From Patescibacteria group bacterium (GTDB lineage: Bacteria > Patescibacteriota > Microgenomatia > UBA8517), in the NCBI GenBank assembly GCA_038061225.1, contig JBBTZT010000003.1, forward strand, positions 60,977 to 111,091: DNA of 50,115 nucleotides, given 5' to 3'. Shown piece by piece: positions 16,185-34,927 of this stretch. Below the pieces are notes generated by a model that ran no database searches, was not told the DNA's origin, and was given only the letters and a program-made list of their open reading frames with translations. The stretch's first letter is position 1, and every line of letters starts with the position of its first letter. The position numbers were made by a program, and so were the translations under genes.

Positions 16185-16382
16185 TTATTTTCCACCCTTT
16201 TTTAATAAGATGTCTATTTGGTTGATTGTTGGAGTAGCAATAATAATATATTTTTTATTATTTTTTCTTTCATGCTTATTGCAACAATCAATGCATCTAG
16301 CGGATGTAACATATTTTGGTACTGAAAATTTATTTTTACACCCACCCTTACATTCTGTGCAGTCGCATTTGATGATATGCAT
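16185..16382 (-). CDS. 65-aa Cys-rich hypothetical protein
   Basis: MHIIKCDCTECKGGC...RCIDCCNKH; AAGGAG SD a few nt upstream of ATG 16382. Confidence 0.65.
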   Translation of the reverse strand: MHIIKCDCTECKGGCKNKFSVPKYVTSARCIDCCNKHERKNNKKYIIIATPTINQIDILLKKGGK

Positions 16383-16492
16383 GACATTCTCCTTTTTGAA
16401 AAATTTTTTAAATACAAAAAACGCATTTGTTTTTGTATTCACATTTTTTTTCAAAAATTATGTCAAAGTACACATGTCCCGTCCAGAGGGCG

Positions 16493-16521
16493 AAAAAAAA
16501 CCTCTTTGCTTAAAGAGGTTT
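16493..16521 (-). terminator. Intrinsic terminator of a leader/attenuator
   Basis: Minus strand AAACCUCUUU-AAGC-AAAGAGGUUU continuing into a U8 tract. Confidence 0.8.
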
Positions 16522-16550
16522 GTCAAAAATAAGTCAACAAGACAAACCTC

Positions 16551-16598
16551 TTAGCTAAAGAGATTAATAATTGTCTTGACTGAACTATAAAATTTCAT
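16551..16598 (-). CDS. Putative leader peptide MKFYSSVKTIINLFS
   Basis: 15-codon ORF between a sigma70 promoter and terminator/antiterminator stems. Confidence 0.55.
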   Translation of the reverse strand: MKFYSSVKTIINLFS

Positions 16599-16609
16599 AT
16601 ATAGTAAGA

Positions 16610-16638
16610 AGTTTAGAAAAAGTTATACATATTGTCAA
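16610..16638 (-). promoter_or_regulatory. Sigma70 promoter for the leader and Cys-rich gene
   Basis: TTGACA (16638-16633), 17 nt, TAAACT (16615-16610). Confidence 0.7.
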
Positions 16639-16666
16639 TACTTAATATTGAAGTTAGAATACATAT

Positions 16667-29410: not shown

Positions 29411-29827
29411 TTATTGCACTATTATTGTTCCACCCTCACCTGCATTAAGATGATCATGGTAATCAAAAGTTCCGGTTTTCAATATGACAACAGTCTTTTG
29501 ATCACCAGGCATTAAATCTAAAGTAAAATCTCCTCCAGAAATTTCTCGATTACCTGTATGAATCGGGTGTGGATTAACCCCAATTTTGATCTCTCTATTA
29601 CCTTTATTTATCCAAGTAATCTTGCCACCGTTTTTTAGAGTAACTTCCGAAGGCGAGAAACCTGTTGCAGTATACATAATGCTTACTCCTTCTGTAATCT
29701 CTGTGTTCGGTATGTTTGTTCCTATAAGTACTTGGTAGCTACTCTGGTTGTAATTTTTAAATAATACAAACCCGCCAACCAAAACAAAAATACCGAGTGC
29801 GAGTCCGATAAAAAAATTTTTGTTCAT
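29411..29827 (-). CDS. Cupredoxin-like membrane-anchored protein
   Basis: GFSPSEVTLKNG-x-x-ITWIN, PHPIH, GTFDYHDHL; N-terminal TM. Confidence 0.8.
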   Translation of the reverse strand: MNKNFFIGLALGIFVLVGGFVLFKNYNQSSYQVLIGTNIPNTEITEGVSIMYTATGFSPSEVTLKNGGKITWINKGNREIKIGVNPHPIHTGNREISGGDFTLDLMPGDQKTVVILKTGTFDYHDHLNAGEGGTIIVQ

Positions 29828-30573
29828 ATGTTCATTCTACTCTTAACTTTAATTGTAATAAATATTAAATTGCCTAATAGTAAAACTGGGGTAAAAACAT
29901 CAGGAAGTGGAAAGCGTATTATAAAAGAAAGTACTGCAATCGAAATTCCAAATAAAAATTGATCAGTACGTTTAGAAGGAGTGGTCATAGGTTCAGGAAG
30001 CATCACAAAGGCAAAAAATATTGCAGTCGGATCAAATATCGTTTGATTGAGTAATGCATAAGTTATATAAAATGCCAATATATTGACAAAACGCCTCATT
30101 CTGACTATTGATACCAATCCGGGCAAAAGCAAAATTAAAATATAAATTATTGCTGATAGATTTTGAACATTAAGTTGTTGCCAGGAGACTGCCCACCAGG
30201 AAATAGTATTACTAAATATAAGGTGGGAAAAAAAGAGGCCAAAAGCAGCTGGATTAAAAATATGCCGATTCTTAAACAGTAAGTAATTTTTGGAAAACAT
30301 TGCTAGGCCAGCAGTAATAATTAACTGATACCATGAAAGATATGGTGAAGCTATCAAGCCGATTATTACGCCGGTTATTATCGCGGAATATGGAAAAAAT
30401 AATGCAACTTTTCGTAACCTTAAAAAAGCTAGATCAAACATTATGGTTGAAACCAAAGCAACTAAAAATGCTTGAAGGTATGAGATAAAGCTGTAATGAA
30501 TAATTGCGCTTATAGAAAGTAGGAGAAGAAAAATTATCATCTGAAGTTTTGGGGTGCGGAAGATTTTATTCAT
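29824..30573 (-). CDS. RnfD/NqrB-family membrane protein (stand-alone)
   Basis: SAIITG, SK...HIFNPAAFG, FVMLPEPMTTP. Start moved to 30573 because the ORF-track start lies inside tRNA-Glu. Confidence 0.8.
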   Translation of the reverse strand: MNKIFRTPKLQMIIFLLLLSISAIIHYSFISYLQAFLVALVSTIMFDLAFLRLRKVALFFPYSAIITGVIIGLIASPYLSWYQLIITAGLAMFSKNYLLFKNRHIFNPAAFGLFFSHLIFSNTISWWAVSWQQLNVQNLSAIIYILILLLPGLVSIVRMRRFVNILAFYITYALLNQTIFDPTAIFFAFVMLPEPMTTPSKRTDQFLFGISIAVLSFIIRFPLPDVFTPVLLLGNLIFITIKVKSRMNI

Positions 30574-30581
30574 TTTTTCAG

Positions 30582-30653
30582 TGACGCTTACGGGAATCGA
30601 ACCCATATTTCTTGGATGAGAACCAAGTGTCCTAGCCGTTAGACGAAAGCGCC
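30582..30653 (-). tRNA. tRNA-Glu (CTC), CCA not encoded
   Basis: Acceptor GGCGCTT/AAGCGTC, anticodon arm CTTGG-TTCTCAT-CCAAG, T arm GGGTTCGATTCCC; TATAAT at 30670-30665. Confidence 0.95.
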
Positions 30654-30679
30654 GTAAGGTTACAATTATAGCAATTCTA

Positions 30680-30708
30680 TTGACAAGATGTAATATTGGA
30701 GTTATGAT
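30680..30708 (+). promoter_or_regulatory. Sigma70 promoter of the greA leader
   Basis: TTGACA (30680-30685), 17 nt, TATGAT (30703-30708). Confidence 0.8.
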
Positions 30709-30720
30709 GGATACCTAATT

Positions 30721-30774
30721 ATGAATATTTTTTCCAACAAATATATTAAAGTCAGCCTTATTAAGGCTATTTGA
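30721..30774 (+). CDS. Putative leader peptide MNIFSNKYIKVSLIKAI
   Basis: 17-codon ORF between the promoter and terminator upstream of greA. Confidence 0.55.
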   Translation: MNIFSNKYIKVSLIKAI

Positions 30775-30797
30775 TTTGTTGGAAGAATTATTTATTA

Positions 30798-30832
30798 AAT
30801 CTCTTCCAAAATAAAGGAGAGATTATTTTTTT
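30798..30832 (+). terminator. Intrinsic terminator in the greA leader
   Basis: aatctcttcc / ggagagatt stem (one bulge, 8-nt loop) followed by A and T7. Confidence 0.65.
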
Positions 30833-30839
30833 GTTAAAT

Positions 30840-31301
30840 ATGAATAAAACAATACAACTTACAAACAAAGGTTTAGAGGCTCTGAAAAAAGAGCTTGAGC
30901 TTTTGGTGAATAAAAAAAGACCAGCTTTGGTTGATAGGCTATCTAATGCTCGTTCTCAGGGAGATTTATCTGAAAATTCAGATTATCAAAACGCAAAAGA
31001 AGAATTGGAATTTTTGGAAGGAAGAATAGAAGAACTCCAGTTAGTAATTAAAAATGCAAAAGTAGTTAAAGATACTGATAATGGAAATAACGTTGGTGTT
31101 GGTACAAAAGTTACCGTTCGTGTTAATGGAGTTAAAAACACTTTTGAAATAGTTGGTGAGTGGGAAGCAGATATGACAAATAAAAAAATTAGTCATGCTT
31201 CACCATTAGGATCAGCTTTGGTTGGTAAAAAAGTTGGTGAAAAATTTGAAGTAGAAGCTCCTGTAGGCAAGATATTATATGAAGTGGTTGCTATAGACTA
31301 A
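30840..31301 (+). CDS. greA: Transcription elongation factor GreA
   Basis: LT-x-x-G-x-x-x-LKKEL, GDLSENSDY-x-x-AKEE, IS-x-x-SPLGSALVGK. Confidence 0.97.
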   Translation: MNKTIQLTNKGLEALKKELELLVNKKRPALVDRLSNARSQGDLSENSDYQNAKEELEFLEGRIEELQLVIKNAKVVKDTDNGNNVGVGTKVTVRVNGVKNTFEIVGEWEADMTNKKISHASPLGSALVGKKVGEKFEVEAPVGKILYEVVAID

Positions 31302-31324
31302 CACTCGCCATATAATTACTTCAA

Positions 31325-32794
31325 ATGGAAGAAACAATAACCAGCTCCGCTGTAAAAAACGTTCGTGAAGAAAGGCTTGAAAAACTTAAAAAGATAAAAG
31401 ATCTAGGTATTGATCCTTATCCTTCCAAAATAACACTCAAAGGTAAACATATTTCAGTTTCAGTTGCTCGTGACCTGATGGATAAAAAAGTCTTGGTTGC
31501 TGGTAGAATTTGGTCAATTAGGGTTCATGGAGGTGTAACGTTTACAGATTTAAAAGATGGATCAGGTTTGATTCAATTATTTTTTCAAAAGAAAGAACTT
31601 AATGATAGATATGATATCTTAAAACTTATAGATACTGGAGATTTTTTAGCAGTTTCAGGAACAGTAATTAAAACCCAAGCAGGTGAAATATCAATACTTG
31701 TAGATAATTTTCAAATTTTATCTAAATCAATTAGACAACTTCCTAGTATTTGGTATGGATTAAAAGATACTGAAGAAAGGTATAGACAGCGATATGTTGA
31801 TTTATTATTAAATGATGAACTAAAAGAATTATTCAAGAAAAAATCTTTTTTTTGGAACAGTATGAGACAATTTTTGATTGAGAAGGGATTTTTAGAAGTA
31901 GAAACTCCAGTTTTAGAAAATACCGTAGGAGGAGCAGACGCTAATCCGTTTACTACTCATCATGATGCATTAAACATTGATTTATATCTAAGAATCTCAA
32001 TGGGTGAACTTTGGCAAAAAAGATTAATGGTTGCTGGTTTTGATAAAACTTTTGAGATTGGAAGACAATTTAGAAATGAAGGATTAAGTCGTGAACATCT
32101 TCAAGATTATACTCAAATGGAATTTTATTGGGGTTATGCTAATTATGAAGATTCAATGGCATTAGTTGAGGAAATGTATAAATTTGTAGCAAAAGAAACA
32201 TTTGGAAAACTAAAATTTAAAATAGCAGGACAGAAAGTCGATTTAGGAGAAAAATGGAAAAAAATTGATTATATAGAAACTATCAAAGAAAAAACGGGAG
32301 TGGATATAATTAACGCAGCGGAAGATGAGTTAAAAAATAAGTTAAAATCACTAAAAATAAAATATGATAATGATTTGGCAAAAGTAAGACTTATTGACAT
32401 GCTCTGGAAACATGTCAGAAAAGAAATTGTTGGCCCAGTATTTTTAGTTGGTCATCCAGTTGAAGTTTCTCCACTTGCCAAAAGAATGATTGATAAACCA
32501 ACAAACGTTGAAAGATATCAAGTAATAATAGCAGGTAGCGAGATGGGCAATGGTTATTCAGAACTTAATGATCCAATTGATCAAGCAGAAAGATTTTTGG
32601 AACAACAAAAACTTCGTGATGAAGGAGATCCTGAAGCACAAATGAATGATTGGGATTTTGTTAGAGCTTTAGAATATGGGATGCCGCCGGTTTCTGGATT
32701 TGGAGTTTCTGAAAGACTTTTTTCTTTCCTTGTTGACAAACCTATCAAAGAAACTGTATTATTTCCATTGTTAAGACCTGAAAAATATGAATAA
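31325..32794 (+). CDS. lysS: Lysine-tRNA ligase (class II)
   Basis: RYRQRYVDL, GGADANPF, FRNEG, NGYSELNDP, EYGMPP. Confidence 0.97.
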   Translation: MEETITSSAVKNVREERLEKLKKIKDLGIDPYPSKITLKGKHISVSVARDLMDKKVLVAGRIWSIRVHGGVTFTDLKDGSGLIQLFFQKKELNDRYDILKLIDTGDFLAVSGTVIKTQAGEISILVDNFQILSKSIRQLPSIWYGLKDTEERYRQRYVDLLLNDELKELFKKKSFFWNSMRQFLIEKGFLEVETPVLENTVGGADANPFTTHHDALNIDLYLRISMGELWQKRLMVAGFDKTFEIGRQFRNEGLSREHLQDYTQMEFYWGYANYEDSMALVEEMYKFVAKETFGKLKFKIAGQKVDLGEKWKKIDYIETIKEKTGVDIINAAEDELKNKLKSLKIKYDNDLAKVRLIDMLWKHVRKEIVGPVFLVGHPVEVSPLAKRMIDKPTNVERYQVIIAGSEMGNGYSELNDPIDQAERFLEQQKLRDEGDPEAQMNDWDFVRALEYGMPPVSGFGVSERLFSFLVDKPIKETVLFPLLRPEKYE

Positions 32795-33128
32795 AATAAT
32801 CAAGAATATTACGAAATTAGCTAAATCAGTAAAAATAGTTGAAAAATTAAATGCTGAACAAAGTAAAGCTAAGATTTTAGAACTTCGAATGGGAATGATG
32901 TTTGCTGCAACCCAATCAGTTGCTATTTCAATACTAGCTCTACTTTTATTCATTGGAGCACCATCAGTCTTTCCAGAAATAATCAATCCATATCTTCCAT
33001 CTTCTTTAAAAATCATGCAAGCAATTATTGCTGTTCCTACAGTATTTTGGTTATTAACAATTCTTGGATGTTTATTTAATTATTTTAGAATTTCAAAACT
33101 TCAAAAATCACTCTCATCTAAAAAATGA
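32787..33128 (+). CDS. Hypothetical membrane protein (2 TM)
   Basis: 113-aa ORF overlapping both neighbours, two hydrophobic segments. Confidence 0.7.
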   Translation: MNKIIKNITKLAKSVKIVEKLNAEQSKAKILELRMGMMFAATQSVAISILALLLFIGAPSVFPEIINPYLPSSLKIMQAIIAVPTVFWLLTILGCLFNYFRISKLQKSLSSKK

Positions 33129-33682
33129 TTTCAAGGGAAGATGCATTTAATCTAGTTACTTCTTGGACTGAAAACAAAAATTTAGTTAAACATATGCTTG
33201 CTGTTGAAGCTGCAATGGGAGGACTAGCTAAACATTTTAGTGATGACGAAAATTTGTGGAAAATAATTGGACTAATCCATGATGCTGATTATGATAAATA
33301 TCCCGATAATCACCCCAAAGTATTAATTGAAGAGTTGGAAAAAAGACAAGAAGATCCAATAATAATTAATGCAATCAAATCTCACGCATGGAATTACAAT
33401 GGTATGGATCAGATACCTGCGACAAAATTAGAATGGAGTTTGTATTGTTGTGACGAATTAACTGGTTTAATAGTGGCTGTAGCACTTGTTCGTCCTGAAC
33501 GAAAACTATCTGCTGTGACTGTTGATAATATTCTTTCAAAATGGAAAAAGTTAGATTTTGCAAAAGGAGTGAATAGGGACCAAATCGGACTTTGTGAAGA
33601 AAAATTGAGAATTAAACTTCCTGATTTTATAGATTTGACATTAAAATCAATGCAAAAAATCGCAAACGATTTAGATTTGTAA
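33125..33682 (+). CDS. HD-domain hydrolase
   Basis: KHMLAVEAAM, GLIHDADY, AIKSH, DELTGLIVAVALVRP, FAKGVNR. Confidence 0.88.
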   Translation: MISREDAFNLVTSWTENKNLVKHMLAVEAAMGGLAKHFSDDENLWKIIGLIHDADYDKYPDNHPKVLIEELEKRQEDPIIINAIKSHAWNYNGMDQIPATKLEWSLYCCDELTGLIVAVALVRPERKLSAVTVDNILSKWKKLDFAKGVNRDQIGLCEEKLRIKLPDFIDLTLKSMQKIANDLDL

Positions 33683-33694
33683 TATAATTACTTC

Positions 33695-34927
33695 ATGTTA
33701 GATATTAAATTTATTAGGGAAAATACAGATTTTGTAAAAACTTGTGTTAAAAACAAGCAACTTGATCCTTCTGTTGTAGATATTTGTCTAGATTTAGATG
33801 AAAAGAAAAGAAAATTAATTGGAGAAGTTGAAAATTTAAGAAGTTTAAAAAATAAATATGCTCAAGAAAAAAATATTGAAAAAGGAAAAGAAACAAAAGT
33901 AAAACTTCAAGAACTTGAACCAAAACGAACTGAAATCGAAAAAGAATTTCAAGCTGCGGCTTGGAAAATTCCAAACATAGTGTCTTCTGATACTGTTGTT
34001 GGGAAAAATGAGAGTGAAAATAGTATTATAAGAACATGGGGTAAACCAACAAAATTTGAATTTAATCCTAAAGATCATATGGAGTTAGGAACAAAACTTG
34101 GAATAATAGATACAGAATTAGGAAGTAGAGTTGCAGGGGCAAGATTTAACTATTTATTTGGAGATGCGGTTCTTTTGCAAAATACTTTGCATCAATTTGC
34201 AATTGAAGTACTCCTGAAAAAAGGCTTCATACCAGTTATTCCTCCACTTATGGTAAAAAGTGAGGTTATGAAAAAAATGTCCAGACATGATCCGCTTGAA
34301 GACAGATATTATTTAAAAGAAGATGACTCCATGCTTGTTGGGAGTGCAGAACATACGCTAGGACCAATGCATATGAATGAAACACTAAACGAGAAAGATT
34401 TACCACTTCGTTATTTTGCCTATACATCTGCATTTAGAAGAGAAGCAGGTTCATATGGAAAAGACACAAGGGGGATCTTAAGACAACATCAATTTGATAA
34501 AATAGAAATGGAATCATTTACAACACCAGAAGACGGTTTAAAAGAACAGGATTTTATTATAGAAATTCAAGAAAATTTAATGCAATCTTTAGAAATTCCA
34601 TATCAAGTGGTTTCGATTTGTACAGGTGATATGGGAGGTCCTGATTTTAGACAAATTGATATTGAAAGTTGGATGCCTGGACAAAATAAATATAGAGAAA
34701 CTCATACATCTGATTATATGACTGACTATCAATCAAGAAGACTAAATACAAGAGTAAAAGTTGGTCAGAATACAGAATTTGTGCATATGAATGATGCAAC
34801 TGCTTTTGCGATGGGTAGAACAATAATTGCAATTTTGGAAAATTTCCAAAATGAAGATGGTTCTGTAAACGTCCCCAAAGTTCTTCGAAAGTGGATGGGG
34901 AAAGAAAAAATTAAAGTTAACCCTTAA
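33695..34927 (+). CDS. serS: Serine-tRNA ligase
   Basis: MLDIKFIREN, FRREAGSYGKDTRGILRQHQFDKIE, DIESWMP, ENFQNEDG. Confidence 0.97.
   Translation: MLDIKFIRENTDFVKTCVKNKQLDPSVVDICLDLDEKKRKLIGEVENLRSLKNKYAQEKNIEKGKETKVKLQELEPKRTEIEKEFQAAAWKIPNIVSSDTVVGKNESENSIIRTWGKPTKFEFNPKDHMELGTKLGIIDTELGSRVAGARFNYLFGDAVLLQNTLHQFAIEVLLKKGFIPVIPPLMVKSEVMKKMSRHDPLEDRYYLKEDDSMLVGSAEHTLGPMHMNETLNEKDLPLRYFAYTSAFRREAGSYGKDTRGILRQHQFDKIEMESFTTPEDGLKEQDFIIEIQENLMQSLEIPYQVVSICTGDMGGPDFRQIDIESWMPGQNKYRETHTSDYMTDYQSRRLNTRVKVGQNTEFVHMNDATAFAMGRTIIAILENFQNEDGSVNVPKVLRKWMGKEKIKVNP

Follow-up and report, generated by a model that had tools for sequence, protein, structure and literature searches.

What decides whether a transcript begun at the greA promoter of a reduced bacterial genome extends into greA itself? 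The question is raised by a stretch of 50,115 nucleotides (nt), hereafter the window, from a Patescibacteria group bacterium (GenBank assembly GCA_038061225.1, contig JBBTZT010000003.1, positions 60,977 to 111,091 of the forward strand). Its host lineage, Candidatus Woesebacteria, belongs to the candidate phyla radiation (CPR). Here an element of ~115 nt, placed between a strong promoter and greA, holds a short upstream open reading frame (uORF) and arms that can pair in mutually exclusive ways. We give a probability of roughly 0.7 to the reading that a transcription attenuator of trp/pheST geometry, dependent on ribosomes and a leader peptide, controls greA here; it probably also controls the co-transcribed genes from lysS to serS.

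Anatomy of the greA leader

The sigma-70-type promoter occupies 30680..30708 of the + strand, with TTGACA at 30680-30685 and TATGAT at 30703-30708, 17 nt apart. Scoring 11/12, it is the best of 15 promoter-like sites returned by a promoter scan of 29500-32500. Transcription is predicted to start at ~30715-30716, about 5 nt ahead of the uORF (30721..30774, +), a short frame that begins 12 nt past the -10 box and has both its start and its stop close to the promoter. It comprises 17 sense codons and a TGA stop (30772-30774), and its peptide would read MNIFSNKYIKVSLIKAI.

In the minimum free energy (MFE) structure the 5' strand of a long helix, P1 (30721..30750, +), lies entirely within uORF codons 1-10 and holds arm 1 (30732-30742), which spans codons 4-8. 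The 3' strand of P1 (30770..30795, +) holds arm 2 (30774-30787), whose first base is the last base of the stop codon. Arm 1 is the exact reverse complement of 30774-30784, together making helix 1:2, and in the same fold an apical hairpin, AGCCTT-ATT-AAGGCT (30754..30768, +; codons 12-16), caps it. Arm 2 can also pair with arm 3: TTGGAAGA (30779-30786) and TCTTCCAA (30802-30809) form a perfect 8-bp candidate antiterminator 2:3 (30779..30809, +), which is incompatible with both 1:2 and 3:4 and whose duplex energy of -10.2 kcal/mol is equalled by 0 of 100 shuffles. Helix 3:4 is the predicted terminator hairpin (30798..30824, +; AATCTCTTCC / GGAGAGATT, one bulge, 8-nt loop, -8.4 kcal/mol). It is followed by the A-T7 U tract of an intrinsic terminator (30825..30832, +), the last base of which lies 7 nt ahead of the greA ATG. 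The gene that the leader would control directly is greA (30840..31301, +), identified by its Pfam GreA_GreB_N and GreA_GreB C-terminal domains (E 3e-24 and 2e-22). The original prediction, an earlier reading of this DNA by itself, had placed the promoter, the 17-codon uORF, the three helices and the U tract 7 nt from greA at these same positions.

The region 30715-30842 (+) folds with an MFE of -35.3 kcal/mol, compared with -16.8 kcal/mol (standard deviation 2.7) for 200 dinucleotide shuffles (z = -6.74), 0/200 of which are as stable. Its - strand is less stable (-26.5 kcal/mol, z -4.4), an asymmetry consistent with an RNA read in the direction of greA.

Conservation of helices and reading frame in Candidatus Woesebacteria

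GreA is present in 120/125 genomes of the family. We compared the greA upstream regions of 116 family genomes (species representatives) with those of 14 genomes of neighbouring families, using a covariance model built from ten close leaders (R1, from A1) and rebuilt from 33 matches (R2, from A4). R2 matches directly upstream of greA in 48/116 family loci at E <= 0.002; relaxing the threshold to E <= 0.5 still gives no match in the 14 loci from neighbouring families. All but one of these leaders (47/48) have a promoter scoring at least 9/12 whose -10 box ends 7-39 nt ahead of the uORF start, and no gene other than greA is shared by all 48. Within the genus, a uORF of 17 codons is retained by six genomes (the peptides include MNIFSNKYIKISLIKAI, MNIFSNMPYSFSLIIKA and MSIFSNKFIRLSLIKAN), as are the motifs of arm 2 (TTGGAGAGA) and arm 3 (TCTCTCCAA) and, ahead of a run of T, GGGGAGAT. 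Lack of conservation of the uORF or stems in relatives had been named beforehand as the outcome that would speak against an attenuator. Instead, the 48 greA leaders, across many genera, retain the uORF, the capped helix 1:2, the terminator and a stop beside arm 2, in the trp/his-type geometry originally proposed.

In the alignment of these 48 leaders (A5), 85.6% of the cells of the stored structure are paired. Column shuffles give 67.9% (0/500 reach the observed value) and partners slid by 1-3 columns at most 58.8%, a large gap despite the alignment having been fitted to the model. Change on both sides is found in 26/27 modelled pairs: model helices 1-3 are 72-87% paired, with double changes in all 15 pairs; the apical cap (helix 4) is 92.9% paired, with compensatory changes in 4/4 pairs; and the terminator (helices 5-6) is 87-97% paired, with double changes in 7/8. 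One position changes jointly in arms 2, 3 and 4, from A, T, A in the window to G, C, G in its closest relative, so that 2:3 and 3:4 both stay paired.

The register of helix 2:3 varies between genera. In a register-free test, the pairing of each leader's own arms was compared with that of arms swapped between leaders. Own arms of 2:3 pair at -12.7 kcal/mol and swapped ones at -10.9 kcal/mol, the former being better in 41/48 leaders, and in 33/39 once nine close relatives are dropped. The own arms are likewise better in 38/48 leaders for 1:2 and in 42/48 for 3:4, and for each of the three helices 0/5000 permutations are as good. The stem covariation that the original prediction had proposed to look for is present for 1:2 and 3:4 as compensatory changes; for 2:3 it appears in the register-free form and is lacking in fixed columns.

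The uORF is conserved as a frame. In 46/48 leaders it starts with ATG and has 15-21 codons, one leader having GTG and one TTG instead. Its ATG stands 7 nt ahead of the first paired column in 32/46, and its stop ends 1-4 nt ahead of the arm-2 strand in 42/46. Shifting the reading by +1 or +2 from this ATG puts the first stop inside that interval in 0/46 and 1/46 leaders, respectively (1/92), and the frame test, for which the selection of leaders is slightly circular since the model includes the ATG columns, gives 46/46 for the ATG frame and 0 and 1/46 for the shifted ones. The identity of the stop varies (TAA 25, TAG 16, TGA 5; TGA in the window, TAA in the closest relative), and three leaders of the same genus have 3 nt more in the cap loop and 3 nt fewer ahead of the stop, so that the length stays at 17 codons. 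A frame that stays open across a variable middle and ends at a fixed place argues that the uORF is not an unused frame, and we infer that it is translated.

If it is translated, its product might itself be the active agent: a small hydrophobic peptide acting in trans, the hairpins merely ending a short transcript. The peptides are indeed rich in I, F, S, L, N and C, with almost no D, E or G, and trans-acting leader peptides such as peTrpL have been described (PMC7298713). Against this, the peptides show little sequence conservation beyond the codons lying in paired RNA, and both the competition of three arms and the stop beside arm 2 would have no role. We consider such an activity highly improbable as the explanation of the locus; it would be compatible with an attenuator.

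Several features of the start of the leader are worth recording. In L021, L007, L086, L103, L117 and others the -10 box ends just 7-10 nt ahead of the uORF start; in several leaders the predicted RNA start lies at or adjoins the uORF ATG, and translation from leaderless or near-leaderless RNA may be possible in this group. A C-rich block, a repeat of the motif of the terminator 5' arm, is conserved between the -10 box and the uORF in long and short forms alike (L085, L074, L011, L047, L037); examples are ATCCCTCGTTGG and CACCCTCATT, and the window's genus has AAACACCT, at 30709-30719 in the window. Its role might be that of a discriminator for tuning initiation, or of an extra pairing partner. 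In one further locus of the genus (L003, genome G006), hardly any sequence separates the -10 box from the terminator hairpin, and neither the uORF nor helix 1:2 is present. The contig ends inside the promoter, 55 nt upstream of greA, and the locus may reflect either a natural deletion or a variable site at which the assembly broke off.

Ribosome position, short forms and GraL

A leader of this design would work as follows. The strong promoter would produce an RNA whose first feature is the 17-codon uORF. With the leader free of ribosomes, arm 1 and arm 2 would pair, and the hairpin of arms 3 and 4, together with the U tract, would stop RNA polymerase (RNAP) 7 nt ahead of greA. A ribosome already at the uORF stop would cover arm 2, and termination would likewise follow. 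If, on the other hand, the ribosome stood on codons ~3-10 as arm 3 emerged, arm 1 would be masked, 2:3 would form, the terminator would not, and greA would be transcribed. The signal would then be the distance by which the ribosome lags behind the polymerase.

Folding under a ribosome footprint, with a 27-nt stretch blocked and equilibrium pair probabilities computed, reproduces this pattern. In the window's leader the terminator has a probability of 0.91 without a ribosome, of 0.37-0.49 with the P site on codons 3-9, where that of 2:3 climbs to 0.43-0.56, and again of 0.91 with the ribosome at the stop. The medians over 42 leaders are 0.94 with no ribosome, 0.42 with a ribosome within the uORF and 0.90 at the stop. 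Termination with a ribosome at the stop codon and read-through upon stalling within the uORF, as predicted before any relative had been compared, are therefore what the constrained folds favour.

Long leaders are only part of the family's repertoire. Defining a strong proximal terminator as a hairpin of -7 kcal/mol or stronger at <=75 nt from greA, we divided the 116 family loci into 48 that match the full model, 35 with such a terminator only and 33 with neither, class counts that are lower bounds, since the hairpin thresholds miss weak or long-loop terminators; by eye, several of the 33 show a uORF and a weaker hairpin. Overall, 75/116 loci have a terminator-like hairpin in the proximal position with an energy of -7 kcal/mol or stronger. 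Many of the 35 consist of a promoter, ~20-30 nt, and TCCCTCC...GGAGGGA followed by T7-8, with no uORF. Examples of the short form are L013, L017, L031-L033, L036, L041, L050, L053, L060, L061, L071, L072, L075, L079, L082 and L089, laid out as E. coli GraL is. In three variants (L014, L023, L110) the uORF runs into the terminator's 5' arm or stops just short of it, and a separate arm 2 is lacking; there, translation would directly prevent termination.

GraL is the closest parallel at the same gene. Two thirds of E. coli greA transcripts end at a leader terminator, yielding the GraL RNAs (PMC2836576), and GreA represses its own gene in cis via the leader, by a mechanism given there as unknown (PMC6829880). 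Like it, the Woesebacteria leaders place a predicted intrinsic terminator, complete with U-rich tract, after one or more strong promoters and ahead of greA; in E. coli, part of the transcripts end there as short RNAs. The short forms also share its layout, a likeness for which we claim no sequence similarity. GraL has just 19 nt ahead of its terminator and neither uORF nor antiterminator (PMC6829880); unlike it, the window's leader has ~80 nt and a uORF ahead of the terminator, plus two further helices.

These parallels suggest an explanation in which the leader terminator alone works, as a GraL-like partial stop possibly tuned by GreA, with the long hairpin RNA an accessory for pausing, stability or protein binding and the uORF unused. 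The E. coli leader terminator stops two thirds of transcripts with no uORF (PMC2836576) and mediates GreA autoregulation in cis (PMC6829880), 35/116 family loci have a strong proximal terminator and no full-model match, many of them a promoter, ~20-30 nt and a hairpin, and no Shine-Dalgarno sequence precedes the uORF. Yet an unused frame would not keep its ATG, 15-21 codons through insertions and deletions, and a stop 1-4 nt from arm 2 (46/48 versus 1/92), nor hold the place of that stop while its identity varies (TAA 25, TAG 16, TGA 5); moreover, the leaders of pheS, described below, stand on the same scaffold with an unmistakable coding signature. The terminator acting alone therefore seems to us improbable, and we infer that in the long form the hairpin terminates transcription under the control of the uORF.

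A number of points weigh against this attenuator or temper the evidence for it. The window's own terminator stem is modest (-8.4 kcal/mol, with a one-base bulge), and a simple terminator scan of 29500-32500 did not flag the hairpin at 30798-30824; in the closest relative the stem is a perfect 9 bp of -10.8 kcal/mol. No Shine-Dalgarno sequence was found ahead of the window's uORF or of any related uORF read, and many relatives have the terminator without a uORF. The conserved positions of the peptide overlap paired RNA and by themselves are uninformative on translation: they are a Ser at codon 5 (15/46) or 6 (21/46) and an Ile-Lys pair three codons ahead of the stop (Ile in 34/46, Lys in 26/46). 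Helix 2:3 is without covariation in fixed columns (64.3% paired, 64.7% in shuffles), its arms being mostly conserved sequence. The pair counts of A5 are biased towards the structure by the fit to the model, and the leaders are related rather than independent, so that shuffle and permutation counts overstate significance. At equilibrium, a ribosome at codon 5 cuts the terminator probability by >0.1 in only 23/42 leaders; in a growing transcript, arm 3 encounters arm 2 while arm 4 is still to be made, and all the footprint figures describe equilibrium. Finally, RNA sequencing runs were searched for 30560-31560, and none is listed as containing this sequence.

Genomic setting, pheS leaders and the candidate signal

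Downstream of greA, and on the same strand, lie lysS (class II), a 113-aa ORF, an HD-domain protein gene and serS (31325..34927, +), tightly packed with gaps of 23, -8, -4 and 12 nt in the order greA-lysS-orf113-HD-serS. A terminator scan found no terminator-like site between these genes on the + strand, and the gene downstream of the cluster is convergent; lysS, orf113, the HD gene and serS probably share the greA transcript.

The sole upstream neighbour is a divergent tRNA-Glu(CUC) (30581-30653, -). Its promoter-like site, ATTACA-18-TATAAT with an upstream TG (30665-30694, -), overlaps the -35 region of greA, the two promoters standing back-to-back. We considered whether the element might be the terminator of a neighbouring gene and rejected this: the tRNA is transcribed away from it and the greA promoter lies 5' of the hairpins, which therefore cannot terminate an upstream gene. 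Arm 4 (GGAGAG) was also rejected as the Shine-Dalgarno sequence of greA, being at least 18-20 nt from the ATG here and in relatives. A repeat or mobile element was rejected as well: the genome has one strong R2 copy (95.6 bits), the next, at 31 bits, being a different leader. In an Rfam scan of 30000-31500 (by E-value) only the neighbouring tRNA was above threshold, and we discarded the weak matches (miRNA, snoRNA, SraB) as chance.

If the leader is an attenuator, its peptide should point to what is sensed. The original prediction remarked that the window's peptide has no run of one amino acid, and this holds across the 46 greA peptides: no residue exceeds some 13% of the total, Ile being the most frequent (13.3%), and there is no run or cluster of codons for a single amino acid. 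Relative to background, Phe (9.7%) is enriched 2.1x, Ser (10.9%) 1.6x, Ile (13.3%) 1.55x and Lys (9.7%) 1.07x; Cys reaches 3.0% (7x, on a tiny base), and Asp, Glu and Gly are scarce.

How an amino-acid signal looks in this family is illustrated by other copies of the leader. An R2 search of whole family genomes gave matches in 65/125, some of them far from greA, and 20 of those loci were inspected. Ten matches, in ten family genomes (L212, L216-L219, L221, L223, L224, L229, L230), lie upstream of pheS, recognized by the Pfam domains tRNA-synt_2d and Phe_tRNA-synt_N. Their leader peptides, such as MKFFFSTNFFFKI and MRLFFFTSFYFRIS, have 4-6 Phe per 13-15 residues, so that Phe accounts for 45/129 residues (35%), as opposed to 9.7% in the greA peptides. 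Arm 2 (GGTGGAGA) follows within a few nt of the stop, and the same Ser codon is found at the same place as in greA leaders. Judged by their sequences, the pheS leaders appear to be classical pheST-type attenuators on the same scaffold, which indicates that the lineage uses the mechanism, and they serve as an internal control for the greA leaders. The query used gave no PheS match in the genome of the window itself, which is 91.7% complete, so that the gene need not be absent.

Further R2 copies precede small ORFs without assigned function or a GCS2-like protein. One attenuator-like leader of this kind is in the window itself, at 16488-16640 (-), upstream of a small Cys-rich ORF (~16185-16382, -). 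It has a TTGACA promoter-like site, a uORF (MKFYSSVKTIINLFS), GACAA and TTGTC segments that can pair in alternative ways, and a terminator (AACCTCTTT...AAAGAGGTT) with T8 behind it; it scores 31 bits with R2 and folds with a z of -4.25. Leaders with the peptide core K-T-I-(I/T/N)-N-L-F precede small ORFs in five other genomes (L211, L214, L215, L220, L222). Woesebacteria would appear to apply leader-peptide attenuation to several operons, namely greA, pheS and at least one further class.

With these leaders at hand, one may ask whether the greA leader is likewise tied to an amino acid, keeping the same architecture with charged tRNA for Ser, or for Ser and Lys, as its signal. It would then be a synthetase attenuator for lysS and serS, with greA riding along. 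The tight, co-directional cluster of greA, lysS and serS in the window agrees with this, as does serS, which many relatives carry co-directionally with greA at a distance of ~1-6 kb downstream (coordinates taken by eye, untallied). Among the 46 peptides, Ser at codon 5 (15) or 6 (21) lies inside arm 1, an ideal position for regulation; Ser is 1.6x enriched overall, Lys is the third-last codon in 26/46, and the leaders ahead of pheS demonstrate that the family has amino-acid-specific versions. The frequencies themselves speak otherwise: Ser makes up 10.9% and Lys 9.7% of uORF residues (Lys 1.07x) against 35% Phe in the pheS leaders, and the recurrence of the same Ser codon ahead of pheS assigns it to the RNA arm, where UCY pairs with GGA.

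The neighbouring genes do not support a Lys signal either. A class II LysRS like that of the window is found in 82/125 family genomes at E <= 1e-30 and was not found, at this threshold, in three of the seven other genomes of the genus, which suggests that genomes without a match use a different lysyl-tRNA synthetase. Two of the genus (G001 and G004), in which class II lysS was not found, keep the long leader and its Lys codons. Furthermore, lysS follows greA in only 11/22 family loci with enough flank, whereas greA alone is common to all 48 leaders. The Lys codons and lysS, offered as an alternative signal in the original prediction, are weakened by these results, and we find a Ser or Ser and Lys signal unlikely.

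The absence of a run for any single amino acid, together with greA as the sole common gene, favours a general signal: given an attenuator, we put it at a little under even odds that the leader responds to ribosome lag, that is, to a slowing of elongation or to uncoupling in general, and not to one amino acid. A trailing ribosome suppresses backtracking of RNAP, and GreA rescues backtracked complexes. On this basis the leader might be linked to ribosome slowing and RNAP backtracking; more tentatively, it could be a sensor of transcription-translation uncoupling, with read-through going up when the leading ribosome lags behind RNAP.

Compared with attenuators described elsewhere, the greA leader resembles those of trp, his and pheST in its promoter-proximal short ORF containing arm 1, its exclusive helices 1:2, 3:4 and, as a candidate antiterminator, 2:3, its intrinsic terminator with U tract, and a stop so placed that a terminating ribosome covers arm 2. 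The mycobacterial ilvB1 leader-peptide attenuator is a further case for comparison, as presented in PMC13236596. Unlike the classical attenuators, the greA leader has no codon run for any amino acid, its target is a transcription elongation factor rather than a biosynthetic or charging enzyme, its arms form a conserved set of pyrimidine UCYCUCC and purine GGAGRGA, and its host is a CPR bacterium. Read from its sequence, it would be structurally a leader-peptide attenuator, but one without a regulatory-codon cluster.

In working principle it would resemble general sensors of translation stress, such as the uORF riboregulation of whiB7/wblC (cited in PMC13236596) and the topAI-yjhQ uORF of E. 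coli (PMC12121999). Those uORFs likewise have no obvious run for a cognate amino acid, and stalling from any cause switches on downstream transcription. The likeness ends there: the genes controlled in those systems are of antibiotic response or toxin-antitoxin type, E. coli topAI-yjhQ is described with other termination machinery, and nothing links the greA leader to antibiotics. A full-text literature search, with most subscription journals outside it, found no paper on an attenuator or leader peptide in Patescibacteria/CPR, in keeping with the original statement that none had been described; on greA and attenuators it found nothing beyond the GraL papers, PMC2836576 and PMC6829880.

Control of the GreA level is poorly understood even in E. 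coli, where the unexplained leader terminator GraL is involved. The Woesebacteria locus offers a greA control point in which a conserved uORF is embedded in a probable trp-type three-helix switch with no amino-acid signature: a concrete, testable way for the progress of ribosomes to set GreA production. With ~115 nt, the element is small enough for heterologous or cell-free coupled systems. The long form adds a uORF and a candidate antiterminator to a GraL-like control point. Should the leader indeed sense uncoupling, the conditions of read-through would be those in which the polymerase backtracks and needs GreA, and a direct measure of ribosome lag would determine how much of its anti-backtracking factor the cell makes. 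E. coli GraL and the short forms lacking a uORF would then be less elaborate relatives sharing this control point, and such control would operate in a reduced CPR genome with few protein regulators.

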